Below, piece by piece: positions 20,997-32,541 of a stretch of DNA of 64,000 nucleotides. The translations under genes were made by a program, and so were the position numbers. Location of the stretch: positions 160,001 through 224,000 of the forward strand of contig JBMNLZ010000001.1 in the NCBI GenBank assembly GCA_050953065.1. Direction: 5' to 3'. Position 1 is the first letter of the stretch; every line of letters begins with the position of its first letter. A model generated the notes under the pieces. The model did not search any database. It was not told the origin of the DNA and saw only the letters and a list, made by a program, of their open reading frames with translations. Source of the DNA: Bacilli bacterium. GTDB lineage: Bacteria > Bacillota_I > Bacilli_A > ML615J-28 > CAG-698.

Positions 20997-21719
20997 TTAT
21001 TTTATAGAGAGAACATCTCTCATATGATATAATCCTAATTCTTTTCCTTCCAAAAACTTAGCCGCGGCTAAAGCGCCGTTTATAAAGATCATTTTTGAAT
21101 GAGCTTCATGTTTAATTTCTATTACTTCATCTAATCCAGCATATATAACACTATGCTCTCCAGTAATAGTCCCCCCTCTAATAGAGTGAACTCCAATTTC
21201 TTTTCCTCTTTTAGATTCCCCTTTTCTTCCATATATAGGCTCATATTTTAAGTGAGAATTAATAGTATTAAGTAACATATTAGCTGTCCCACTTGGAGAA
21301 TCTACTTTTTTATTATGATGTTTTTCGATTATTTCTACATCAAAAGACTCTTTTACAATCGGAGTAATAATATCTGCTAACTTATTTAAAATAGCAACAC
21401 CTAAAGAAAAATTATAGGCTTGTAATACAGCGGTCTTAGTACCTAAAAATGCTATTCTTGTTAAATCTTCTTCTGTATAGCCTGTTGTACCAAAGATTAC
21501 TTTAACTTTTTCTTTTCTCACATATTCAAAAATTTCACCAAGCATAATTGGGCTAGAGAAATCAATAATCATATCTGGTTTTTCTGGTAAGTCATCAAAA
21601 GAATGAAAGCACCCTTCTTCAATGGCAACTACACCTATTAAAGTTAAAGATGGTCGCCTTTTAATTTCTTCAACTAATAATTTTCCCATTGTACCATAAC
21701 CAACTACAACTATTTTCAT
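20997..21719 (-). CDS. dapB: 4-hydroxy-tetrahydrodipicolinate reductase
   Basis: GYGTMG, IDFS, GTTG, EKHHNKKVDSPSGTA. Confidence 0.95.
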   Translation of the reverse strand: MKIVVVGYGTMGKLLVEEIKRRPSLTLIGVVAIEEGCFHSFDDLPEKPDMIIDFSSPIMLGEIFEYVRKEKVKVIFGTTGYTEEDLTRIAFLGTKTAVLQAYNFSLGVAILNKLADIITPIVKESFDVEIIEKHHNKKVDSPSGTANMLLNTINSHLKYEPIYGRKGESKRGKEIGVHSIRGGTITGEHSVIYAGLDEVIEIKHEAHSKMIFINGALAAAKFLEGKELGLYHMRDVLSIK

Positions 21720-22597
21720 TTTTTACCTCCTAATATTGATAAAGACTTAATAAGAGTTTCTTTATTTTTTTTGTCCATATAAGTAAGTGGCAATCTATAT
21801 CCACCAACATTAAACCCTAAATAATTCATTGCTTCCTTAATAGGAATAGGATTTGTTTCTATGAATAAAGTGTTTATTAAATCTAGATACTTTAATTGAA
21901 TACTTAAGGCTTCCTTTGTTTTACCATTTAAATAATTCATAACCAATTCATGCATTTCATTAGGTAAAATATTAGCAGCTACACTGATAACACCTACTCC
22001 ACCCATAGATAAAACAGGAACAATCATATCATCATTTCCTGATAATAAACAAAAGTCATCATTAACATACTTAGCAATTTTTGCAATATAGCTGATGTTA
22101 CCGCTCGCTTCTTTAATCCCGACAATGTTTTTATGCTTAGATAACTCGCCAACAACATCAACATCTATATTGCAACCTGTCCTACCAGGAACATTATATA
22201 GAATAACTGGAATATTAACGTTGTCTGCAACTATAAGAAAATGATCTAACATTCCTTGCCTATTAGTTTTATTGTAATATGGTGAAATAACAAGTAATCC
22301 ATCTACACCTAACTTTTCAAATTTTTGACTTTGAACTTTAGCAACTTCTGAATTATTTGATCCACTTCCTGCAATTACCGGAATTCGCTTATTAACATGT
22401 TTAACAACAAATTCAACTATTTTTTCATCTTCTTCATGAGTTAAAGTTGCTGATTCCCCTGTTGTTCCTAATATTACTAATCCATCAGTCTTTTTTTCAA
22501 TGTGATACTCAATCAATCTCTCAAATTCATCAAAATTAATACTACCATCTTCATACATTGGTGTGACTAAAGCCACATAAGAACCTCTAATTTTCAT
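21716..22597 (-). CDS. dapA: 4-hydroxy-tetrahydrodipicolinate synthase
   Basis: GTTGES, PYYNK, YNVPGRTG, GIKEASG; ATG 22597 after GGAGG. Confidence 0.96.
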   Translation of the reverse strand: MKIRGSYVALVTPMYEDGSINFDEFERLIEYHIEKKTDGLVILGTTGESATLTHEEDEKIVEFVVKHVNKRIPVIAGSGSNNSEVAKVQSQKFEKLGVDGLLVISPYYNKTNRQGMLDHFLIVADNVNIPVILYNVPGRTGCNIDVDVVGELSKHKNIVGIKEASGNISYIAKIAKYVNDDFCLLSGNDDMIVPVLSMGGVGVISVAANILPNEMHELVMNYLNGKTKEALSIQLKYLDLINTLFIETNPIPIKEAMNYLGFNVGGYRLPLTYMDKKNKETLIKSLSILGGKK

Positions 22598-22630
22598 TTT
22601 TTCCTCCAAAATAATCTATTAACTAAAAAT

Positions 22631-22651
22631 AAAAGAACGCCAAAGGCGCTC
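22631..22651 (-). terminator. Riboswitch expression-platform terminator
   Basis: GAGCGCC-TTT-GGCGTTC-TTTT between the riboswitch and dapA. Confidence 0.65.
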
Positions 22652-22671
22652 ATTAATGCAATATAATTGAC

Positions 22672-22834
22672 AGTAATAGCGCCACTACCCTATATGGGTA
22701 ATGAGTGTTATAGGTTTTTCCTATAACCCCACATATAGATTTCTCAAGTCTACACGTTCGGCGATGATTACCTTTCACATACTTCATCGAATGACTTCTC
22801 CATATATTACTATGATGCATCGCTACCTCTATTA
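22672..22834 (-). ncRNA. Lysine riboswitch
   Basis: TAATAGAGGTAGCG...AGTA...GAAAGG...CGCCGAA...TGGGG...GGCGCTATTA with P1 pairing, directly upstream of dapA-dapB. Confidence 0.9.
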
Positions 22835-22884
22835 TATTTAGTTTTTTTTATTATAACACGTAAAAATAAGTTTGTAAAGCATAA

Positions 22885-23973
22885 TTAAGCAATAATTATT
22901 TTTTTAAAGGTATTAAAACCTATTTCTAAAACATCCATATCAAAATCAAAATCATTTTTATGAAGATTGGTTTTGTCACCTATCCCTAAAAACATATACA
23001 AAGATTTTATCTTTTTTCCATAGAAAGAGAAGTCTTCAGATTGCATAGCCGGTTTTGTAAGCTCATACAAATCGATTATCTTTTTTGTTTTTGAAAATAA
23101 TTCATAATCGTTTTTAAGAGCTGGATATGCGGCTTGTAAACATATATCTATATGGCATTTAAACTCAGATTCAACAGATTTTTTGATTTCATCAATATTT
23201 TCCATTATTTTTTTAAAATCATTTTCGTCATAAGTCCTTAGGCTTCCCTTAATTAAAGTCATATCACTAATTGCATTTAGAACTTTACCACTTTGAAAAA
23301 CACCAAATTTTAAAATTTTATTCTCTTTAGTTTCACATTTTTCAATCATTTCATATAATCTATTGATCAAAACACAGCCTATATGTAAAGCGTCTATTCC
23401 TAAAAAATGATTAGCTATATGAATACTTTTACCAAAAATTTCTATATCTATTTCATTTGCTTGAGACATCATGTAGTTTGGTCTTGAAAAAATTTTTCCC
23501 TTTTCAAGATTTGGCCATAGATGAAGCCCATAAATTTCTACTACATTTAATTTAGATAATATGCCAGAATTAATAATTCCTTGAGATCCACCAATCGTTT
23601 CTTCAGCAGGTTGAAAAATTAACAAAATATTTTTTTTAATATTTTTAGAGTTATCATTAATATATTTGGCTAATACTAATAGAATTGCCATATGACCATC
23701 ATGGCCACAAGCATGCATACATCCATTAGTAGATGCGAATGGCAAATTTGTTTTTTCAAAAATTTTTAAAGCATCCATATCTGCTCTAAAAGCAATAGTT
23801 TCTCTATAACCTAAATCAAAGTATCCTAAAACAGAGGTTTCATAAACTTCATATATTTGACATTGATATTTTTTCAAAATATTTTTAATGTAATTGCTAG
23901 TTTTAAACTCCTTTAAAGCCAATTCAGGAATTTGATGTAAATCTATTCGATATTTTTTTAACAAATCTAACAT
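22885..23973 (-). CDS. M20D amidohydrolase, likely N-acetyldiaminopimelate deacetylase
   Basis: LHQIPEL, FRADMDAL, MHACGHDGH, FQPAEE, EDFSFY; next to dapAB. Confidence 0.8.
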   Translation of the reverse strand: MLDLLKKYRIDLHQIPELALKEFKTSNYIKNILKKYQCQIYEVYETSVLGYFDLGYRETIAFRADMDALKIFEKTNLPFASTNGCMHACGHDGHMAILLVLAKYINDNSKNIKKNILLIFQPAEETIGGSQGIINSGILSKLNVVEIYGLHLWPNLEKGKIFSRPNYMMSQANEIDIEIFGKSIHIANHFLGIDALHIGCVLINRLYEMIEKCETKENKILKFGVFQSGKVLNAISDMTLIKGSLRTYDENDFKKIMENIDEIKKSVESEFKCHIDICLQAAYPALKNDYELFSKTKKIIDLYELTKPAMQSEDFSFYGKKIKSLYMFLGIGDKTNLHKNDFDFDMDVLEIGFNTFKKIIIA

Positions 23974-23982
23974 TTATTTGCT

Positions 23983-25119
23983 CTATTCTTTATTATCAAA
24001 ATTATATACAAAGCATCTTCTTCTTCTATGTTGACGAACATCAAACAACTTCCATTGAGCTTTCATAGGTTCATTCAATTCTAATTCAGGACCAGTTTCT
24101 GCTCTAATTACGCCATTTTTAAGAGCGGTATTAATAGCTTCATTTAATATTATCGCATTTACTCCTCTATTTTGATATTCAGGTCTTACTCCAATCAAAT
24201 AACAATCCAAAATTTTTTCATGCTTTAAAGCTCTTAAAATCTTTATAAATCCAAAAGGAAATAATCTCCCTTTACAAGATTGAAGAGCACGAGATAAAGA
24301 TGGCAATAATAAACCAAAACCTATCATTTCATTATTTTTATTTCTAACATCATAAAAATAATCTAAATTAACTAAAGGATAAAATTGCTTTGTATACTTT
24401 TTAATTTGATTATCTGTTAAGGGAACTACTCCATATAAATGCGCATATGATTCTTGAATAATATCAAAAAAATCTGGTATTATTTTCTTTAATTGTCTAC
24501 GTTTTGTATGTTTATGAAACTTAAAGCCATATTTTTCTTTAATTCCTTTGGTTAGTTTTTGAAGTCTTTCATTTGGTTCGCTAGGCGGAAATACTTGAAA
24601 CTCTATCCAATCAGCGTCTTTAACAAAGCCCAGTTTAGTCAAATGTTCAAAATAATATGGCGCATTATAAATTGTAACAAACATATCCAACTCTTCAAAC
24701 CCTTCAATTAACATCCCTTGCTTATCAAAATCACAAAATCCAATAGGTCCTATTATTGAATCAAGTCCAAGTTCTTTTGCCCAATTCTCTAATGCTTTAA
24801 ATAAAGCTTTGCTAACTTCAAAGTTATCGATAGTATCAAATCTAGAAAATCTTAACTGTTTTTTCTTAGTTTTTTCAATATGAGCTTTATTATATATACC
24901 AGCTATTCTTCCGACCACTTCTCCATTTATAAAAGCTAAATATAATTTAGTTTCACAATATTCATAAGCTGGGTTTTTCTTTGGAATAAACATACTTATT
25001 TCATCGCTGATTAAATCCGGAACAAAAAACTCATTTTCTTCATAAAGTTTATTGCAAAAACTAACAAAAGTTTTCAAATCTTTTTTGTTAACTACTTCTT
25101 TTAAAATAACTTCACTCAT
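23983..25119 (-). CDS. GNAT-fold bacterial ceramide synthase-like protein (bCerS/YghO-like)
   Basis: KNPAYEYC, VVGRIAGIYN, GPIGFCDFDKQGMLIEGF, YNAPYY, GRLFPFG, IGVRPEYQNRG, ELELN; genomic context with SPT. Confidence 0.78.
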   Translation of the reverse strand: MSEVILKEVVNKKDLKTFVSFCNKLYEENEFFVPDLISDEISMFIPKKNPAYEYCETKLYLAFINGEVVGRIAGIYNKAHIEKTKKKQLRFSRFDTIDNFEVSKALFKALENWAKELGLDSIIGPIGFCDFDKQGMLIEGFEELDMFVTIYNAPYYFEHLTKLGFVKDADWIEFQVFPPSEPNERLQKLTKGIKEKYGFKFHKHTKRRQLKKIIPDFFDIIQESYAHLYGVVPLTDNQIKKYTKQFYPLVNLDYFYDVRNKNNEMIGFGLLLPSLSRALQSCKGRLFPFGFIKILRALKHEKILDCYLIGVRPEYQNRGVNAIILNEAINTALKNGVIRAETGPELELNEPMKAQWKLFDVRQHRRRRCFVYNFDNKE

Positions 25120-25128
25120 AAAAACCTC

Positions 25129-25917
25129 TTATTTCGCATACATTTTATAAAGAACATATAAAACAAATCTGTTAGGTAAAAATTTCTTTAGAAAAACAAA
25201 TAGCTTATAACTAAAACCTACCGATTTTACTACTGGTGGATTTTTTTTCTTTATAATTTTATATATTACTTTAGATACTACAACAGGGCTCCCCCCATTT
25301 ATCTCATCTTTTTCCATTTTTTTAATAGACCTTTTAAATCTTTCGTAATACACAGAATCTTCTTCTTCTGATTTTGATCTATTTTCAGTAAAACTAGTTT
25401 TTGTATCTCCTGGCATAACACAAGTTACTTTAACTCCAAAAGGCTTAACTTCTAATGCTAGCCCTTCTGAAAAAGATAAAACTGCAGCTTTACTTAAAGA
25501 ATACATAGTTTGAAAAGGAATAGTAAGAACACCAGCAATACTTCCTATATTAATTATTTTTCCCTTTGTTTCTCTTAAATAAGGCAAACATGCTTGTGAC
25601 ATCCTAATCATAGATACTATATTTAAATCAATTGTTTTTTTTATATCTTCACAAGGTGTATTCTCAATAGATCCACTGACACCTATTCCAGCATTATTGA
25701 TTAGCACATCGATTCTTTTCTCATTAGAAACAATCACTGAAATAGCATTTAAAATCTCACTCTCATTAGTAATATCACACTGTAAATACTTTATGTTAGA
25801 TAATTTTCCAGTTCTTCTAGCAAGGCAATAAATATTATAATCTTTTTTTGCTAAATATTCTGCGGTTACTTGCCCTATTCCCGAAGTAGCACCTGTTATA
25901 ACTACTACTTTTTTCAT
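25129..25917 (-). CDS. Short-chain dehydrogenase/reductase, putative 3-ketodihydrosphingosine/oxidised-ceramide reductase
   Basis: TGATSGIG, NNAG, catalytic YSLSK, PGDTKT; sits between SPT and the bCerS-like gene. Confidence 0.72.
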   Translation of the reverse strand: MKKVVVITGATSGIGQVTAEYLAKKDYNIYCLARRTGKLSNIKYLQCDITNESEILNAISVIVSNEKRIDVLINNAGIGVSGSIENTPCEDIKKTIDLNIVSMIRMSQACLPYLRETKGKIINIGSIAGVLTIPFQTMYSLSKAAVLSFSEGLALEVKPFGVKVTCVMPGDTKTSFTENRSKSEEEDSVYYERFKRSIKKMEKDEINGGSPVVVSKVIYKIIKKKNPPVVKSVGFSYKLFVFLKKFLPNRFVLYVLYKMYAK

Positions 25918-25925
25918 ACTTATAC

Positions 25926-27107
25926 CTAAATAACCTCTAAAATTTCAAGTACTTCTTTTATTTTAGAAATTGCAAAATCCATCTGTTCCTTCGTATGAGT
26001 AGCTGTATAACTTGTTCTTAATAAACTCATTCCAACAGGTGTTGCAGGTGAAATTACTGGATTTACATAAACACCACGTTCCATTAATAATTTACAAGCT
26101 TGAAAAGTTTTAACATCATCATATGTATAAATAGGTATTATTGGTGTTTCGCTTTCAATAATGTTTATTCCAGCTTTTTTAAGGCCTTGCCTCATATAAT
26201 TACTAATTGATCTTAAATTTTCAATTCTTTCAGGTTCAGATTCAAGAATCTTCAATGCTTCTAATGCACTCGCAGCGCAGCCAGGAGTTATTGATGCACT
26301 AAAAATAAACGGTCTAGATGTATGTTTAACATATTCTATCACTTGTTTTTTAGCAGCCATATAACCACCTAAGCTAGCTAATGATTTTGAAAAAGTTCCC
26401 ATATAAATATCTACATCATCTTCAAGACCGAAATGTTCAGCTGTTCCTCGACCATGTTTACCTAAAACACCCAAACCATGAGCATCATCGACCATTACTC
26501 TAGCACCATATTCTTTAGCTAATCTCACAATTTCAGGCAAATTGCATATATCGCCCCCCATGCTGAAAACGCCATCAGTAACTATTAAAATTCCTTTATT
26601 TTGATCGATTGATTTTAAAATTTTTTCTAAATCTTCCATATCATTATGTTCATAACGTAATAATTTAGCATAGCTCAATCTACAAGCATCATATATGCTT
26701 GCATGATTTTCTTTATCACCAACTATAATATCATCACGACCACAAATTGCACTGATTATTCCCAAATTACTTTGAAAACCAGTACTAAAAGTTATAACTG
26801 CTTCTTTATTAAGAAATTTAGCTAAAGCCTTTTCTAATTTTACATGTAAATCTAGAGTTCCATTTAAAAATCTTGAACCAGAACATCCACTTCCATATTT
26901 TTCAATTGCTTCTATAGCAGCTTTCTTAACTCTTTTATCAGAAGTAAGTCCTAGATAGTTATTGGAACCAATCATAACTGTCTTCTTACCTTCAATAAAA
27001 ACCTCAGTATCTTGACCAGTTTCTAATTCATGAAAATAAGGATAAATTCCAGCAGCTTTAGTAGTTTCTACTTTTTCTAATTTTTCTGTTTTTTTAAATA
27101 AATCCAT
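25926..27107 (-). CDS. spt: Serine palmitoyltransferase (alpha-oxoamine synthase family)
   Basis: AGIYPYF, GSNNYLGL, GCSGSRFLNGT, NHASI, DDAHG, PLP-lysine motif GTFSKSLASLGG typical of bacterial SPTs. Confidence 0.78.
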   Translation of the reverse strand: MDLFKKTEKLEKVETTKAAGIYPYFHELETGQDTEVFIEGKKTVMIGSNNYLGLTSDKRVKKAAIEAIEKYGSGCSGSRFLNGTLDLHVKLEKALAKFLNKEAVITFSTGFQSNLGIISAICGRDDIIVGDKENHASIYDACRLSYAKLLRYEHNDMEDLEKILKSIDQNKGILIVTDGVFSMGGDICNLPEIVRLAKEYGARVMVDDAHGLGVLGKHGRGTAEHFGLEDDVDIYMGTFSKSLASLGGYMAAKKQVIEYVKHTSRPFIFSASITPGCAASALEALKILESEPERIENLRSISNYMRQGLKKAGINIIESETPIIPIYTYDDVKTFQACKLLMERGVYVNPVISPATPVGMSLLRTSYTATHTKEQMDFAISKIKEVLEILEVI

Positions 27108-27133: not shown

Positions 27134-27865
27134 TTAAAAACCTATTATATTTCTTAATATGTAATATATAATTACTAGTAATAAAGATGGTAGCATATCA
27201 GCAATTCTAATTTTTTTATAACTCTCAATGTGTTCAAATAAAAAATTAATACCTATACACATGACAATGGTGTACCCTACCAAACAAAAAGCATTTAAAA
27301 AGTCCGTTTGAGTTAAAAAATCTTTTGCAAAAAAAGCAATTAATGTTAATACTCCCTGATAAATAAATACTGATATAGCCGCAAAAAGCACACCAAATCC
27401 TAAAGTTGCAGCCATTAACATCGCTGCTACACCATCAATTGCTGATTTTAAAAATAAGACATTATAATCACCCACTGAAGCTTGTACACTGCCAAAAATA
27501 GCCATAGCGCCAACGCACATTACTAAACTTGCTGTCACAAAGCCTTCTGAAAACGAGCCCTTATTTAGTTTAAGTTCTATGTAGTCGCCAAATCTTTTAA
27601 TATTTCCATCAATATTAAGAAAAGTTCCAAATAAAGTTCCTAAACTTAAACTTATTAGCAATAATAATTCAAATTGAGTTTTCAAAAGTCCATCTTCAAT
27701 AAAAAGCATTGACTTTAAAACACCTGCTAGTCCAATTATTAATACTACTATTCCTATAGTTTTAAGTAAACTATCACATATTTCTTTTTTTAGTTTTGAT
27801 TTTAATATTAAACCAATTAAACCACCTAGCAGAATAGCAAGTGCATTTACTACAGTAGCAATCAT
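27134..27865 (-). CDS. DUF554 family membrane protein
   Basis: TVVNALAILLGG, EGFVTASLVMCVGAMAIFGS, KSAIDG, QG motif. Confidence 0.88.
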   Translation of the reverse strand: MIATVVNALAILLGGLIGLILKSKLKKEICDSLLKTIGIVVLIIGLAGVLKSMLFIEDGLLKTQFELLLLISLSLGTLFGTFLNIDGNIKRFGDYIELKLNKGSFSEGFVTASLVMCVGAMAIFGSVQASVGDYNVLFLKSAIDGVAAMLMAATLGFGVLFAAISVFIYQGVLTLIAFFAKDFLTQTDFLNAFCLVGYTIVMCIGINFLFEHIESYKKIRIADMLPSLLLVIIYYILRNIIGF

Positions 27866-27952: not shown

Positions 27953-28255
27953 CTAAGCACTATTTTTTAATTGATCTATATATTCTTGTGCCTTCTTTTT
28001 TTGGTCACTAGATAAAGGTTTGCATTTGGATAAATCTCCATTATTAATAATTATATCTTCAGCCAAACCTTTACATCCTGCAAATCCACAACTTCCACAA
28101 TTATATCCTGGAAGCAAATTAACCAGTTCTTCTACTCTATTATCATCTTCAACATAAAAATACTTATTAAAGATAGCAATTAAAACTCCAAAAAAACTAC
28201 CTATGCCAGCTAAAATTAACGCTGGTAATATATAAACACTAAATATACTAATCAT
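27953..28255 (-). CDS. rnfB: Rnf subunit B, short form (TM + one FeS domain only)
   Basis: TM helix, then LPGYNCGSCGFAGC...C; no ferredoxin repeats. Confidence 0.85.
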   Translation of the reverse strand: MISIFSVYILPALILAGIGSFFGVLIAIFNKYFYVEDDNRVEELVNLLPGYNCGSCGFAGCKGLAEDIIINNGDLSKCKPLSSDQKKKAQEYIDQLKNSA

Positions 28256-28830
28256 TATATTATCCCCGCAAATCTAACAAATATCATAGCCATAATACCG
28301 GCAGTAATTAAAGAAATAGGTACGCCTTTAAAACCTTCGGGAACTGGTGCAGCAGTAATTCTTTGTCTTACTGCTGAGAAAAGGAATAAAATTAATAGAA
28401 AACCAACTGATGTAGAAAAAGAATATACAAAAGCTTTCAATAACGTATATTCTTCAGAAGCAACAATTGTAGCTACCCCTAAAACAACACAGTTCGTAGT
28501 TATTAATGGTAAGTATATACCTAAAGAATTATAAAGAGATGGCGAAATTTTTTTAATAAAAATTTCCATAATTTGAACTAATCCAGCTATTACTAATATA
28601 AATACTATTGTCTTCATATAAACCATTTCGAAAGGAACTAGTATGAATGTATATAAAAGCCAAGCGACAACAGCTGAAATAGTAACCACAACAACAACCG
28701 CCAAACCCATTCCAACAGCAGATTTTTTACTGTTTGAAACCCCTAAAAATGGACATATTCCTAAAAAACTATATAGAATAACATTCTCAATTAATATAGC
28801 AGTTACTGCTAAAACAATTAATTCTTTCAT
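28255..28830 (-). CDS. rnfA: Rnf subunit A
   Basis: FLGICPFLGVS, LGIYLPLITTNCVVLG. Confidence 0.95.
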   Translation of the reverse strand: MKELIVLAVTAILIENVILYSFLGICPFLGVSNSKKSAVGMGLAVVVVVTISAVVAWLLYTFILVPFEMVYMKTIVFILVIAGLVQIMEIFIKKISPSLYNSLGIYLPLITTNCVVLGVATIVASEEYTLLKAFVYSFSTSVGFLLILFLFSAVRQRITAAPVPEGFKGVPISLITAGIMAMIFVRFAGII

Positions 28831-29465
28831 ATTTGCTCACCCATTTTTTTCTTTCTATTGATTCTAATAGTAGTGATTGTCCCAAGTAATAAACCAAAAA
28901 CAATAAATGCCCCGCTTGGTTTTAAAAACAAATCAGAGAAAATCGGTAATACACCTTCTTTAATAAAAATCTTATTAATATCAATTACAAGATTTCCCCA
29001 AATAGTAATTGTTCCATTTCCAATAATCTCTCTTATCATTGATAAAATCATCAAGGCTAAAGTATAACCTAATCCCATTCCTAATCCATCCAAAAATGAA
29101 TTAAAAACAGAATTTTTTGAAGCATAACCTTCAGCTCTACCTAAAATGATACAGTTAACAACTATTAGTGGAATAAAAATTCCTAAACTTGCATGTAATT
29201 CAAACAAATATGCACACATTAGTACATCTACAATTGTTACTAATGTTGCAACTATAACTATATACATAGGAATTCTAATTTCATTAGGAATAATTTTTTT
29301 AAGTGCAGAGATTATAACATTAGAAAAAACAAGTACAAACGTTAACGCCAACCCCATACCAAGAGCATTTTCAATGCTAGTAGACAACGCTAAAACTGAA
29401 CACATGCCAAGTAAGCCAACAAAAACAGGATTCTCTACCCAAAGACCTTTAGTAAATTCTTTCAT
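28827..29465 (-). CDS. rnfE: Rnf subunit E
   Basis: ENPVFVGLLGMC, IPLIVVNCIILGRAE. Confidence 0.95.
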   Translation of the reverse strand: MKEFTKGLWVENPVFVGLLGMCSVLALSTSIENALGMGLALTFVLVFSNVIISALKKIIPNEIRIPMYIVIVATLVTIVDVLMCAYLFELHASLGIFIPLIVVNCIILGRAEGYASKNSVFNSFLDGLGMGLGYTLALMILSMIREIIGNGTITIWGNLVIDINKIFIKEGVLPIFSDLFLKPSGAFIVFGLLLGTITTIRINRKKKMGEQI

Positions 29466-30010
29466 TCAGCACCTCCTAGTATTTCTTTATATTGCACATA
29501 ATGAGTTGCAACAATATTGACTGCTTTTTTTATCGCTGTTGAGCTTATTGTAGCACCAGTTAAATTTACAAAAGCAAAACTATCAATTGATGCATCCACC
29601 AAATTATAATCACTATTAGAAACTTTCTCTAATTGTTCTTTAGCTTCTACTATTCTAAATTGACTAATCTTATCTGTTTCATAATCGATTGTCATTAAAA
29701 TTGATATTAATCCGTTTTGATAACCTTTTGTACTAATATAATATACAATAGCTTTTGTTGAAGCTCCATCAGAATATCGATAAACATGCTTAAATTGTGA
29801 TTTTTCAGGAACATCATCTAAAATATTTTCGCATTCTAAATCTTTAAATTGAGGTAATTCTTCATCTAAAACATTCATCATTTTATTAAACAAATTTTGC
29901 TCAATAGGTTTGGCTGTTAATTCATTAAAAAATGCCAATAAAAGTCCTGATATTAAACCTAACACTAACAAAGACAAAGAATAATGAAGCCATTGAGGTA
30001 TTTTTTTCAT
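29462..30010 (-). CDS. rnfG: Rnf subunit G
   Basis: N-terminal anchor, KGY, FMN-attachment TGATISS. Confidence 0.88.
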   Translation of the reverse strand: MKKIPQWLHYSLSLLVLGLISGLLLAFFNELTAKPIEQNLFNKMMNVLDEELPQFKDLECENILDDVPEKSQFKHVYRYSDGASTKAIVYYISTKGYQNGLISILMTIDYETDKISQFRIVEAKEQLEKVSNSDYNLVDASIDSFAFVNLTGATISSTAIKKAVNIVATHYVQYKEILGGAE

Positions 30011-30012
30011 TA

Positions 30013-31242
30013 TTATTGCCCTCCTAAAGTATAATTAATAAACGTAGTAAAAATCTCTTGTTCTTTAAAACCGCTGTTCATCTTCATAACTACGTAAAGA
30101 GAAATTCCAATAAAGAATAATACTATAATAGAGTAAGCAATTAATCTTTTTTTAACTAGAGGCTGAACTCTAATATTAGCACATATTTCATCTAATAAAA
30201 TTACTAAAAGATTCATTAATAAAATTGAAGTTGCAACGCCTTCAGGATAATTGCTTAAGAATCTAAACAATATTGTTAATATACCTAAAGAAATAGAAAA
30301 TAATACTTTACCATTTGGAGTTTTTGGACCGGTAACTGGTTCAGTCGCCATAAATACAGCTCCAAACATTAATCCGCCAGTAATAATATTAAAAATTGGA
30401 TATCTTATATCAAAACCATAACCTGTTGCCATACCAATAAAATAACTTAAAACAAAAACTGTTCCTACATAAATTACAGGAATTTTCCAATCAATTACTT
30501 TTCTTAAAGATAAATATACTCCCCCTAAAATACATAATAACGTAGAAGTTTCACCTAACACACCAGGTTTAAAACCCAAAAACATCTTAAACAAAGAGCC
30601 ATACGGAGAAATAATATCATCCATTGAAGCATATAAATTAGCTTTAAAATGAGTTAAAGGTGTAGCACCAGCAATAAGTTCGCTACTAAGTCGGGAACTA
30701 GTTAATATATTCAATTCTAAAGCATTTGGAAATCCACCCGCTTTAAGAATAACTCCATAATAAGCAGATAAAACAAAAACATAACCAACTAATGCAGGGT
30801 TAAATATATTATGTCCAAACCCACCAAACAATATTTTTACAACAATAGTTGCTATAAAACAACCTATAATTAAAATCCAAATTGGTGCGGCTAATGGCAT
30901 TAGTAAACCAAGCAAAATACCTGGAATTGCTGCTACATGCAATTGACTTAAAACATTTTTAATATTTTCTTTTTTTATATAAGCATAATATACAAACTCA
31001 ATTCCTGCACAAACAACAGCACCAGTGATTACTAAAACCAAAGGGTATATCATTTGCCAAAAATTAACTGGAACAACTACTTCATCTGAAAAATACGGCA
31101 TAAGTCCATTTTTATACCATGCAAATATGATTATTGGAATAAGCGCTATTATAAAATCCCACATCATAGTTGAAGTGTTTTCAAAATGATCTGCTTTTCT
31201 AATAAAAGGTTCTTTTCCTAATATAAATTTTCTTGAATTCAT
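30013..31242 (-). CDS. rnfD: Rnf subunit D
   Basis: FGGFGHNIFNPA, GATPL, GET, FMATEPVT. Confidence 0.94.
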   Translation of the reverse strand: MNSRKFILGKEPFIRKADHFENTSTMMWDFIIALIPIIIFAWYKNGLMPYFSDEVVVPVNFWQMIYPLVLVITGAVVCAGIEFVYYAYIKKENIKNVLSQLHVAAIPGILLGLLMPLAAPIWILIIGCFIATIVVKILFGGFGHNIFNPALVGYVFVLSAYYGVILKAGGFPNALELNILTSSRLSSELIAGATPLTHFKANLYASMDDIISPYGSLFKMFLGFKPGVLGETSTLLCILGGVYLSLRKVIDWKIPVIYVGTVFVLSYFIGMATGYGFDIRYPIFNIITGGLMFGAVFMATEPVTGPKTPNGKVLFSISLGILTILFRFLSNYPEGVATSILLMNLLVILLDEICANIRVQPLVKKRLIAYSIIVLFFIGISLYVVMKMNSGFKEQEIFTTFINYTLGGQ

Positions 31243-31248
31243 TATATT

Positions 31249-32541
31249 TTACCTCTTTGCCAAATATTCTTTTGCTTTTACAACATTAACAGTTAAATCA
31301 ACTCTTGAGGGACAAATGTATGAACACAAACCACATGCAACACATTTATTAACAGCTAGTTTTTCTAATTGTTCTTTATTTTTCATTTTAAAAGCCGTAT
31401 TGATAAAAACTGGTGTTAAGTTAACCGGACAAACAGTCGCACACTTTCCGCACCCCATACATTCAGGATTGTTCTCTCTATCAGAAACTTCAAAAATTAC
31501 AATACTAGTCAATGCTCTATTAACAACCATTTCATCAGAAACTAAACTCTTTCCAGTAAATGGTCCACCAGCTACAAAATATAATTTTTCATAATCAATA
31601 TAACCACCATTTTTACGAACTATATCTGAGATTAACGTTCCAACTTTTACATGTACATTTCTTGGATTAACTATACCGTTTCCTGTTAATGATAATGTTC
31701 TACTTATTAACGGCATATTATTTTCAACCGCATCCTTCACAGCTAAAACAGTAGAAACATTGTTTACGATGACACCAACTTCGCTTGGTAAAAAATTGTA
31801 ATTCTTTTTTATTATTTTTTTAACTAAATATTTTTCCCAACCAGCCGGATATATATCTTTTACTAAAAATAATTTGATATTCCCCATTGGGTCAAGTTTT
31901 TTATTAATAATATCAATTAGTTCTTTTTTATTTTTCTTAATAGCTATATAAGCAGTCTTTGCAAGCGCAGCTTTTAATAGATATTGACAACCGATAATTA
32001 TCTTATCAAAATTATCTCTAACTTGAACATAATCATCAGTTAAATAAGGTTCACACTCAACAGCATTTATTATTAATGTGTCAATTTTATTTTTTGAACT
32101 GTACTTAGCATAAGTAGGGAACCCACTGCCACCTAATCCAACAATTCCGCAGGCCCTAATTCTTTCAATAATTTCTTCTGATGATAACCTGCTAGCATCA
32201 ATTGGCTTTATAGTACCAATCTTTTCTTCTAAAAAGTTATTTTTAATTTGGATACAAGGTATCATTTTTCCTGAAGAATGCCATTTTTTTATGTCTACTG
32301 AAATCACTTCTCCACTAACAGAAGCATGACTAGAAATTGGAAATCTTCCTTCTTTTCTTGCAATCTCTTGTCCTAATTTAACCTTATCACCTGGTTTAAC
32401 TAAAGGTACAAACGTACCACCTTGTTCAAAAAGTGGAATATAAACATATTCTGGATCTAAAAATTCTAAAACATTATTTTGCAAAGATATTTCTTTATTG
32501 TTTTTGTGTTCTTTAATATGTATTCCTTTAAAATTGTTCAT
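31249..32541 (-). CDS. rnfC: Rnf subunit C
   Basis: GIVGLGGSGFPT, NAVECEPYLT, two CxxCxxCxxxCP. Confidence 0.95.
   Translation of the reverse strand: MNNFKGIHIKEHKNNKEISLQNNVLEFLDPEYVYIPLFEQGGTFVPLVKPGDKVKLGQEIARKEGRFPISSHASVSGEVISVDIKKWHSSGKMIPCIQIKNNFLEEKIGTIKPIDASRLSSEEIIERIRACGIVGLGGSGFPTYAKYSSKNKIDTLIINAVECEPYLTDDYVQVRDNFDKIIIGCQYLLKAALAKTAYIAIKKNKKELIDIINKKLDPMGNIKLFLVKDIYPAGWEKYLVKKIIKKNYNFLPSEVGVIVNNVSTVLAVKDAVENNMPLISRTLSLTGNGIVNPRNVHVKVGTLISDIVRKNGGYIDYEKLYFVAGGPFTGKSLVSDEMVVNRALTSIVIFEVSDRENNPECMGCGKCATVCPVNLTPVFINTAFKMKNKEQLEKLAVNKCVACGLCSYICPSRVDLTVNVVKAKEYLAKR

Follow-up and report, generated by a model that had tools for sequence, protein, structure and literature searches.

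Organization of the locus

The window analyzed here is a stretch of 64,000 nucleotides from the genome of a Bacilli bacterium (GenBank assembly GCA_050953065.1, contig JBMNLZ010000001.1, positions 160,001 to 224,000), and the system in question is a group of three adjacent genes on its minus strand that is proposed to encode a pathway to the sphingolipid dihydroceramide. The first gene, spt (25926..27107), encodes a 393-aa pyridoxal phosphate (PLP)-dependent alpha-oxoamine synthase of the serine palmitoyltransferase (SPT) type. The second gene (25129..25917) encodes a classical short-chain dehydrogenase/reductase (SDR) of 262 aa, which is a candidate 3-ketosphinganine reductase of the Bacteroides KdsR type. 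The third gene (23983..25119) encodes a tandem GNAT N-acyltransferase of 378 aa from the YghO/bCerS family, which is a candidate ceramide synthase. All three genes read cleanly with translation table 11. The gap between spt and the SDR gene was 8 nt (25918-25925), and that between the SDR and GNAT genes was 9 nt (25120-25128), exactly the coordinates and gaps that a preliminary description of this DNA had given for the three open reading frames at 23983-27107. That description had also named the products as an Spt, a reductase of the 3-ketosphinganine type, and an N-acyltransferase of the bCerS type, and the sequence tests presented below supported this core of it.

Assignment of the synthase

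Among NCBIfam models, the top match of the window Spt was NF047600 (SerpalmtaseCFB) with 570.7 bits, which led the next model by 150 bits. The other models scored 419.5 (BioF/Kbl subfamily), 419.2 (Kbl), 418.6 (betaproteobacterial Spt), and 391.8 bits (BioF). In the PDB, the best matches were the two entries of the Sphingobacterium multivorum SPT, 3a2b and 8guh, with 450 bits each. These were followed by a Thermus-type BioF/Kbl enzyme (299 bits), the Sphingomonas SPTs (283-295 bits), and Kbl (254-274 bits, with E. coli Kbl at 254), and further matches included the cysteate-C-fatty acyltransferase 28eh (255 bits), BioF (177-200 bits, with E. coli BioF at 177), and ALAS (178-182 bits). The alignment with the S. 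multivorum SPT was ungapped over 387 residues and contained 205 identities (approximately 53%, counted by hand), and the MGTFSKSLASLGG block at the PLP lysine was identical in the two enzymes.

The motifs GIYPYF, GSRFLNGT, and GTFSKSLASLGG, on which the first assignment to the SPT type had been based, were all present in the 393-aa translation, and in the alignment such signatures discriminated the enzyme from E. coli Kbl and BioF. GSR[FM]LNG[TS] and GTFSKS were common to the window Spt and the enzymes of Prevotella, Sphingomonas, and the E. coli sphingolipid locus, whereas the corresponding sites read SVRFICGT and GTLGKA in E. coli Kbl and GSGHVSGY and VTFGKG in E. coli BioF. The earlier statement that Kbl and BioF carry GTLGKA was therefore correct for E. 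coli Kbl but not for E. coli BioF. A further difference was found at residues 354-357 of the window Spt, which read PATP, as in the Sphingomonas enzyme. The same site is PACA in Prevotella and PVVP or PTVP in Kbl, BioF, and the paralogues of the relatives, one of which has PTVA. In PMC10865984, PATP (human SPTLC2) and PACA (P. copri, B. thetaiotaomicron) are described as a ligand-recognition or acyl-tunnel motif.

A phylogeny of 28 rows was built with IQ-TREE in quick mode, with support from the Shimodaira-Hasegawa-like approximate likelihood ratio test (SH-aLRT) and with long branches flagged. It contained the window Spt, 12 orthologues, and 10 paralogues from relatives, and as references the Prevotella Spt, the synthases of the Sphingomonas parapaucimobilis and E. 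coli PN43 loci, and Kbl and BioF of E. coli K-12. The window Spt and its orthologues joined the Prevotella Spt and then the Sphingomonas and E. coli locus synthases in a clade with an SH-aLRT of 97, and this clade was separate from the Kbl-like paralogues of the relatives, E. coli Kbl, and BioF. A small tree of the kind suggested in the preliminary description, without ALAS among its rows, placed the synthase with SPTs. Identity to the window Spt was 53.7% for Prevotella, 39.5% for Sphingomonas, 39.3% for the E. coli locus enzyme, 36.1% for Kbl, and 30.4% for BioF. Taken as family evidence, these comparisons support the assignment of the 25926-27107 product to the serine palmitoyltransferase type.

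The synthase gene was the single alpha-oxoamine synthase match in its own genome. Relatives carried a second, Kbl-like alpha-oxoamine synthase with 41-46% identity, which was missing in the genome of the window.

Assignment of the reductase

The second gene had been called a classical SDR, and Pfam agreed, with 163.8 bits for adh_short vs 36.7 bits for Epimerase. The protein has TGATSGIG at residues 9-16, a YSLSK motif, and a hydrophobic C-terminal tail. As TGATSGIG lies at the very N-terminus, a signal peptide is absent. The top NCBIfam family was NF049977 (KDhSphingRedKdsR) with 258.5 bits, and the next family scored 212.6 bits. The name of this model and its above-cut-off match in B. thetaiotaomicron suggest that it was based on BT_0972. 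According to PMC9278070, BT_0972 reduces 3-ketosphinganine both in vitro and in E. coli, and its homologues conserve a Gly-rich NAD(P)-binding segment and Tyr-x-x-x-Lys. Both of these features were found in the window SDR.

The strongest evidence on the reductase was gene order. In a survey of named contigs, 226 relatives of Spt were confirmed, and the best 80, with 68-92% identity, were kept. An SDR homologue was located no more than 300 bp from Spt in 33 of these 80 loci, namely, upstream on the same strand in 22, upstream and divergent in eight, and downstream in three. At least 1.1 kb of sequence was available on both sides of Spt in 59 of the 80 loci, and 22 of those 59 had the Spt-SDR pair. 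Moreover, a set of 41 genomes of the own order was compared, consisting of 14 Spt-positive and 27 Spt-negative genomes. A KdsR-like SDR with at least 225 bits was present in all 14 Spt-positive genomes vs five of the 27 Spt-negative ones. Judged by family and gene order, the SDR is a candidate 3-ketosphinganine reductase of the KdsR type. In five relatives (G002, G003, G019, G020, and G024), the KdsR-like SDR was situated 7-16 kb from the Kbl-like paralogue and not beside Spt.

Assignment of the N-acyltransferase

Domain models described the third gene poorly. Its match to the Pfam family PF00583 was weak (29.7 bits), NCBIfam held no family for it even at E <= 10, and a sequence search of the PDB returned GNAT matches at chance level only. 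The family itself is large, with 4913 clusters (50% identity) at E <= 1e-3 and 564 at E <= 1e-30. The likeness to YghO proposed in the preliminary description was borne out, as the K-12 protein of E. coli could be aligned from end to end at 28% identity (378 aa, E 1e-42). Homologues were also located within the sphingolipid loci of Sphingomonas and E. coli. A literature search on YghO brought up nothing of relevance. A tblastn search of PLSDB matched 44 records. The identities were 42.7% for Bacteroides finegoldii, 42.5% for Phocaeicola massiliensis, and 39.1% for Prevotella sp. oral taxon 299 among Bacteroidota, 43.3% for Vescimonas fastidiosa, 42.4% for a Chloroflexota record, 27.9% for Sphingomonas parapaucimobilis (E 5e-30), and 24-25% for Roseomonas species. 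Several of these "plasmids" look chromosomal; the B. finegoldii record carries parE, coaD, and fumarate reductase, and the Sphingomonas record carries rplU, rpmA, obgE, and proB.

In the case of Sphingomonas, the locus order was NAD(P)H-binding protein, acyl carrier protein (ACP), Spt (annotated as a class I/II aminotransferase), ATP-binding protein, LptF, LptG, fatty-acid desaturase, and N-acetyltransferase, the last of which is the GNAT homologue. In E. coli PN43, yghO was followed by a fatty acyl-AMP ligase, an NAD-dependent epimerase-family protein, ACP, a class I/II aminotransferase, LptG, and LptF. In E. coli K-12, an IS5 element abuts yghO, and the ligase, reductase, ACP, Spt-like synthase, and LptG/LptF genes of PN43 are missing; thus, K-12 keeps only a bCerS-like remnant of the locus. 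The Roseomonas homologues were likewise inside lipid or sphingolipid loci. No CerR-like gene was found on the B. finegoldii fragment that carries the GNAT, the Phocaeicola and Prevotella records carry no annotation, and no lipid genes were found beside the Vescimonas or Chloroflexota GNATs. In Caulobacter, the sphingolipid operons comprise ccna_01212 to ccna_01226, with CCNA_01213/01214 as LptG2/LptF2, and a sphingolipid operon is also described in E. coli UTI89 (both in the preprint 10.64898/2026.04.12.717747). CCNA_01212 is the Caulobacter CerS reference, by homology to which the B. fragilis CerS, BF9343_4218, was found (10.1101/2023.05.23.541633). When the Sphingomonas, E. coli, and Bacteroides GNATs were used as queries, each matched only this one gene in the genome of the window.

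An AlphaFold2 model of the GNAT, calculated from a 77-row alignment, had a tandem-GNAT fold with a predicted local distance difference test score (pLDDT) of 96.1 and a predicted TM-score (pTM) of 0.92. Its structural matches in the PDB included MAB_4324, the clostridial glucosamine N-acetyltransferase, the clavulanate tandem GNAT, and MshD, with TM-scores of approximately 0.55-0.61; the top match was 7q3a (0.61), and none of the listed matches was a bCerS structure. The loci and homologies described above support placing the GNAT in the family that occupies the bCerS position of proteobacterial sphingolipid loci, and they make it a candidate ceramide synthase. Two other interpretations of GNAT homologues were rejected. 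The longer homologues were considered as Spt fusions and proved to be a tandem duplication, a PMSR fusion, and a DGC fusion. Internal stops in some matches were considered as decay; this was dismissed, as those matches extend as far as the C-terminus, where the natural stop may simply have been read through.

Distribution in relatives, the class, and Clostridia

The closest Spt loci among the best 80 of 226 were labelled Bacilli bacterium (92% and 79% identity) and Acholeplasmataceae bacterium (79%), and the GNAT homologues also carried these two labels. At 68-79% identity, Spt was present in metagenome-assembled genomes (MAGs) labelled Clostridia, Christensenella, Christensenellales, Catabacter, Borkfalkiaceae, Thermoclostridium, and Lachnospiraceae. 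Conservation at this level between classes points either to strong constraint or to lateral transfer.

The class was sampled evenly, with thresholds of E <= 1e-140 for Spt and E <= 1e-40 for GNAT. Spt was found in 81 of 400 genomes and GNAT in 95 of 399; both were present in 41 genomes, Spt only in 40, and GNAT only in 54. As kin genomes are not independent, no statistics were calculated for this co-occurrence. The frequency of Spt in the class and its presence in many Clostridia MAGs show that the trait is not peculiar to one Mollicute-like lineage. The families differed markedly: f19 had Spt in 21 of 22 genomes and GNAT in one, f6 had Spt in 10 of 12 and GNAT in one, and f13 had Spt in 21 of 30 and GNAT in 26 of 30. 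Families f19, f6, f16, and f4 carry Spt and almost never a YghO/bCerS-type GNAT. Families of this kind may stop at the sphingoid base or may use an unrelated N-acyltransferase.

Among the 41 relatives, GNAT was found in 34. In the 14 Spt-positive relatives, it was full-length in 12, partial in one (G012), and not found in one (G015). A GNAT tree of 29 rows, which included copies from 10 Spt-positive relatives, contained a clade with an SH-aLRT of 99 that united the window GNAT with these 10 copies and six Spt-negative copies; a second clade was entirely Spt-negative. The GNATs of Spt-less genomes might serve in the salvage of external sphingoid bases, which is a guess.

The second genome of the genus of the window retained the gene order, with identities of 92% for Spt, 77% for SDR, and 84% for GNAT. 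This 92%-identical relative was the one locus among the best 80 of 226 with the three-gene order. Elsewhere, both in the relatives and in those 80 loci, no GNAT was located within 6-7 kb of Spt, apart from one locus at 5.6 kb. That the three genes have come together as an operon in this genus is the chief local reason for regarding the product of Spt and SDR as the substrate of the GNAT.

Neighboring genes and expression

All flanking features described here are also on the minus strand. Downstream of GNAT, at a distance of 9 nt, is a gene for an M20 amidohydrolase (22885..23973, 362 aa; Pfam Peptidase_M20, and TIGR01891 with 239.7 bits, which is over its cut-off). A sequence scan from spt through the M20 gene, including the GNAT/M20 gap, found no terminator-like site. 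After the M20 stop, there is a promoter-like site at 22878-22850 (TTTACA-17-TATAAT with TG, matching at 11 of 12 positions) and then a lysine riboswitch at 22839-22669 (Rfam RF00168, 76.2 bits), which heads dapA and dapB; the dapA/dapB region with its riboswitch spans 20997-22839 of the window. The promoter-like site and the riboswitch indicate that the unit ends there. Upstream of spt, at 26 nt, is the gene for a DUF554 membrane protein (27134..27865, 243 aa; Pfam PF04474, 201.9 bits), and a complete rnfCDGEAB-type gene set (27953-32541) lies directly upstream of DUF554. The spt, SDR, and GNAT genes are probably one transcript, the M20 gene is probably co-transcribed with GNAT, and DUF554 is possibly the first gene of the unit.

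It is doubtful that the M20 protein takes part in the lipid pathway, and it may instead serve as a lysine-pathway deacylase, encoded in front of dapA/dapB. As its gene precedes the promoter and the riboswitch, such a deacylase would be outside riboswitch control. If it is not a lysine-pathway deacylase, it may act on an N-acyl lipid. The M20 gene adjoins GNAT only in the relative of the same genus. DUF554 likewise adjoins spt only in that relative and is approximately 4 kb away in one further locus.

Contigs from metatranscriptomes (four runs from three studies, 95-100% identity) covered parts of GNAT, SDR, and spt. The contigs covered 8 to 12 of 30 bins per run, and the uncovered parts are uninformative. 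One RNA-library contig (23855-24096) crosses the GNAT/M20 junction. These contigs give a weak hint that the three genes are expressed.

Host and envelope

The host genome has 1.55 Mb in three contigs, approximately 28% G+C, and a completeness of 93.9%. Searches of this genome for LpxC (PF03331), Omp85 (PF01103), the penicillin-binding protein (PBP) transpeptidase (PF00905), and FtsW/RodA/SpoVE (PF01098) returned no match, and the controls were matched in the reference genomes where this was expected. A single Mur_ligase_M match was found, in a 428-aa frame. The host is therefore a probable wall-less, monoderm, Acholeplasma-like member of the Bacilli, as had been proposed, at an assembly completeness of 93.9%. 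DNA runs that hold the stretch were labelled as anaerobic digester, bioreactor, sludge, and biogas-fermenter metagenomes; they hold 0.30 to 1.00 of the sampled words, and two of the runs may be the source itself.

The PBP transpeptidase was present in 27 of the 41 genomes of the order: all 16 genomes of the sister family f2 had it, as did 11 of the 24 in the own family. Its distribution is thus patchy even inside one family, and loss of the wall in this order appears to have been both recurrent and recent. Repeated peptidoglycan loss has been published for these orders (PMC10868615). The preliminary description had proposed that sphingolipids could rigidify the membrane in place of a wall, and comparative support for this was not obtained. 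In the own family, eight Spt-positive genomes were PBP-negative and six were PBP-positive, and the corresponding numbers of Spt-negative genomes were six and five. In addition, PBPs were present in all five Spt-bearing Clostridia MAG genomes tested. As the frequency of Spt hardly differed between relatives with and without a wall, the sphingolipid genes are not tied to wall loss.

Proposed pathway and its alternatives

With the family placement of each protein, the gene order, the distribution, and the missing wall and outer-membrane genes observed as above, a three-step pathway can be proposed. Spt would condense L-serine with a long-chain acyl thioester to 3-ketosphinganine. The SDR would then reduce the 3-keto group with NAD(P)H to sphinganine, and the tandem GNAT would acylate the amine of sphinganine to give dihydroceramide. 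This order of synthase, reductase, and acylation has been proposed for Bacteroides thetaiotaomicron and eukaryotes. The route would be cytoplasmic and membrane-associated, with dihydroceramide made at the cytoplasmic face of the single membrane. Since the host is single-membraned, the product would be located in the only membrane of the cell. We infer the substrates, the order of the second and third steps, whether CoA or ACP carries the donated acyl chain, the final head group, and the role of the lipid in the cell. Judging from the sequences, we consider it likely that Spt, SDR, and GNAT act in this order and yield dihydroceramide.

Several results weigh against this proposal. Both family assignments fell below curated cut-offs. 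The window Spt missed the cut-off of 640 for NF047600 with its 570.7 bits, which the Spt of Prevotella sp. oral taxon 299 passes at 659.5 bits. Similarly, the comparison of the SDR with the Bacteroides KDSR, which the preliminary description had recommended, returned that model as the best family, but the 258.5 bits missed its cut-off of 400, and none of the 41 relatives reached this cut-off. Moreover, the in-vivo role of BT_0972 has been described as unclear (PMC11087976). The link from the GNAT to CCNA_01212 and BF9343_4218 is indirect and runs through locus position and intermediate homologues. GNAT was missing at E <= 1e-40 from 40 of the 81 Spt-positive genomes of the class, and it was present in 54 Spt-negative class genomes, in 21 of the 27 Spt-negative relatives, and in Vescimonas and the Chloroflexota record with no Spt nearby. 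The compact three-gene unit of the preliminary description is real; however, the order spt-SDR-GNAT is confined to the window and one other genome, which belongs to the same genus (two of the 14 Spt-positive relatives and one of the best 80 loci). The RNA-library contigs bridged neither the spt/SDR nor the SDR/GNAT junction, and these libraries may contain DNA. With regard to acyl supply, no long-chain acyl-CoA synthetase was found in the own genome, where one weak AMP-binding match occurred (56.5 bits, 439-aa frame), and no fatty acyl-AMP ligase was found there. A FabF-type synthase and two ACP-like matches, which speak for the proposal, were present. With FabF and ACP-like proteins present and the acyl-AMP ligase not found, an acyl-ACP donor is as likely as acyl-CoA.

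The same products could also be made in the order known from Caulobacter and B. fragilis, in which the GNAT would acylate 3-ketosphinganine and the SDR, though not homologous to CerR, would then fill its role and reduce 3-keto-dihydroceramide. B. fragilis accumulates 3-ketosphinganine when cerS is lost and keto-dihydroceramide when cerR is lost (10.1101/2023.05.23.541633), and acylation likewise comes first in Caulobacter (PMC11087976). A convincing CerR was not found in the own genome, in which the best match had 21% identity (E 2e-6), and the operon SDR is thus the only candidate reductase for either order. However, the best family of the SDR was the 3-ketosphinganine reductase model and not the NDUFA9-like CerR. 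Furthermore, the Spt-SDR pair is kept in many genomes without a GNAT nearby and in families that mostly lack GNAT (f19), which suggests that the SDR acts on the product of Spt itself. This acylation-first order is therefore considered unlikely.

It is also conceivable, though in our judgment quite improbable, that Spt and SDR make a free sphingoid base and that the GNAT is a general N-acyl- or N-acetyltransferase that came into the same unit by chance, with no ceramide formed. The wide occurrence of the GNAT family without Spt in the class sample and the absence of GNAT from half of the Spt-positive genomes there would agree with such an arrangement. The GNAT tree seems to follow the organisms, with Spt-negative members within the Spt-positive clade, and the M20 and DUF554 neighbors demonstrate tight packing of unrelated genes on this strand. 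In contrast, the homologues in Sphingomonas, Roseomonas, and E. coli are inside lipid or sphingolipid loci, and the Bacteroidales homologues are 42-43% identical. The GNAT gene is only 9 nt from the SDR gene, and the order was retained in the second genome of the genus, in which GNAT is 84% identical. These results favor a GNAT that acts on the Spt/SDR product, as in the dihydroceramide pathway proposed here.

A synthase that uses cysteate, in a unit that makes a capnine-type sulfonolipid, is very improbable. Capnine synthesis also proceeds through an alpha-oxoamine synthase and then a reductase, and the solved cysteate-C-fatty acyltransferase 28eh was a detectable relative of the window Spt; nevertheless, the SPT match was nearly 200 bits above it (450 vs 255), and the SPT-specific NCBIfam model was the top match of the synthase. 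Finally, although some close homologues are labelled "8-amino-7-oxononanoate synthase" and the Kbl and BioF models score 419 and 392 bits, a Kbl or BioF enzyme using glycine or alanine, with the SDR as an unrelated protein or a threonine-dehydrogenase-like partner, is hardly credible, as the synthase lies outside the Kbl/BioF branches and has the SPT motifs, relatives hold a separate Kbl-like paralogue, BioB, BioC, BioD, and Tdh had no match in the own genome (E. coli queries, E <= 1e-3), and the SDR is of the classical type with 262 aa and not of the extended, epimerase-like type to which SDR-type threonine dehydrogenases belong.

Novelty and implications

In PMC12134224, PMC11087976, and PMC10865984, sphingolipids in bacteria are attributed to Bacteroidota, to some Proteobacteria, and to a few Actinobacteria. 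A Black Sea study reported Spt-like proteins in 40 phyla, and its main text, as far as it was accessible, names no Firmicutes. In our literature search, no report was found that links Spt to Mollicutes, Acholeplasmatales, Christensenellaceae, or Firmicutes producers, and a prior mention, for example in supplements, is possible. As each enzyme is homologous to a known one, the finding would represent a known pathway in a new lineage. Compared with the literature, the new elements are a wall-less Firmicute lineage, the combination of a Bacteroides-type reductase, a bCerS-family acyltransferase, and Spt in one operon, and a highly conserved Spt clade that is broad across Bacilli and Clostridia MAGs.

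About a fifth of the Bacilli genomes in the sample had Spt, as did many gut MAGs from Clostridia (Christensenellales-like). On this basis, we hold the balance to be even on whether sphingolipid or sphingoid-base synthesis is widespread and overlooked in Firmicutes, with a conserved module of Spt and a KdsR-type reductase at its core and with the wall-less genus adding a bCerS-type gene and a complete ceramide operon. One reason for such an oversight would be annotation, as the preliminary description had anticipated. The database names of close homologues were "aminotransferase class I/II-fold PLP-dependent enzyme," "8-amino-7-oxononanoate synthase," "hypothetical protein," and "GNAT family N-acetyltransferase," and standard BioF, SDR, and GNAT labels conceal the pathway.

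If this wider reading holds, single-membrane bacteria would possess a eukaryote-like membrane lipid, the early reports of sphingolipids in Acholeplasma would gain the genes that they lacked, and Bacteroidota would not be the sole sphingolipid makers in gut and digester communities. If the operon works as proposed, the Christensenellales-like and other gut Firmicutes MAGs with 68-79% identical Spt would be unrecognized producers of host-active lipids. Moreover, if a wall-less cell with a single membrane makes ceramide, the lipid cannot serve an outer membrane there. The compact operon also offers a handy three-gene cassette for the disputed order of reduction and N-acylation.

Comparison with known systems

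One of the closest parallels is the Bacteroides pathway (Spt, BT_0972, and BF9343_4218), which has the same three enzyme types, and in both cases the enzymes look soluble and cytoplasmic. The B. finegoldii GNAT has the same length as the window GNAT and is 42.7% identical to it. However, the genes of Bacteroidota are dispersed (PMC11334938, and also in the B. finegoldii record), whereas those of the window form one unit. The window host also differs from Bacteroides in having no outer membrane to receive the lipid, and a CerR-type reductase was not found in it. The Spt of Prevotella has PACA at the site where the window Spt has PATP. The Sphingobacterium multivorum SPT is the closest solved relative of the synthase, but its source is a diderm member of the Bacteroidota.

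The Caulobacter crescentus locus ccna_01212-01226 (bCerS, LptG2/F2, Spt, ACP, and CerR) resembles the window in its Spt-type synthase and its clustering, and its N-acyltransferase is linked to that of the window through the homologues in the Sphingomonas and E. coli loci. Unlike that locus, the window lacks a dedicated ACP, an acyl-ACP synthetase, an NDUFA9-like periplasmic CerR, and LptFG paralogues, and a classical SDR takes the place of CerR. The alphaproteobacterial Spt is also more distant, as the Sphingomonas enzyme is only 39.5% identical to the window Spt. In the case of the E. coli YghO locus, the GNAT homology is full-length, and yghO heads the sphingolipid-type locus of PN43; however, ACP, an acyl-AMP ligase, an epimerase-family reductase, and LptFG mark that locus as one of the Caulobacter type.

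Among the best 80 of the 226 Spt loci, no record was named Acholeplasma axanthum. Sphingolipids were reportedly found in this organism by the lipid chemistry of the 1970s, and it resembles the window host in being wall-less, in belonging to the same broad group, and in being a reported sphingolipid maker. The genes of the window are a candidate gene set for sphingolipid chemistry of the A. axanthum type.

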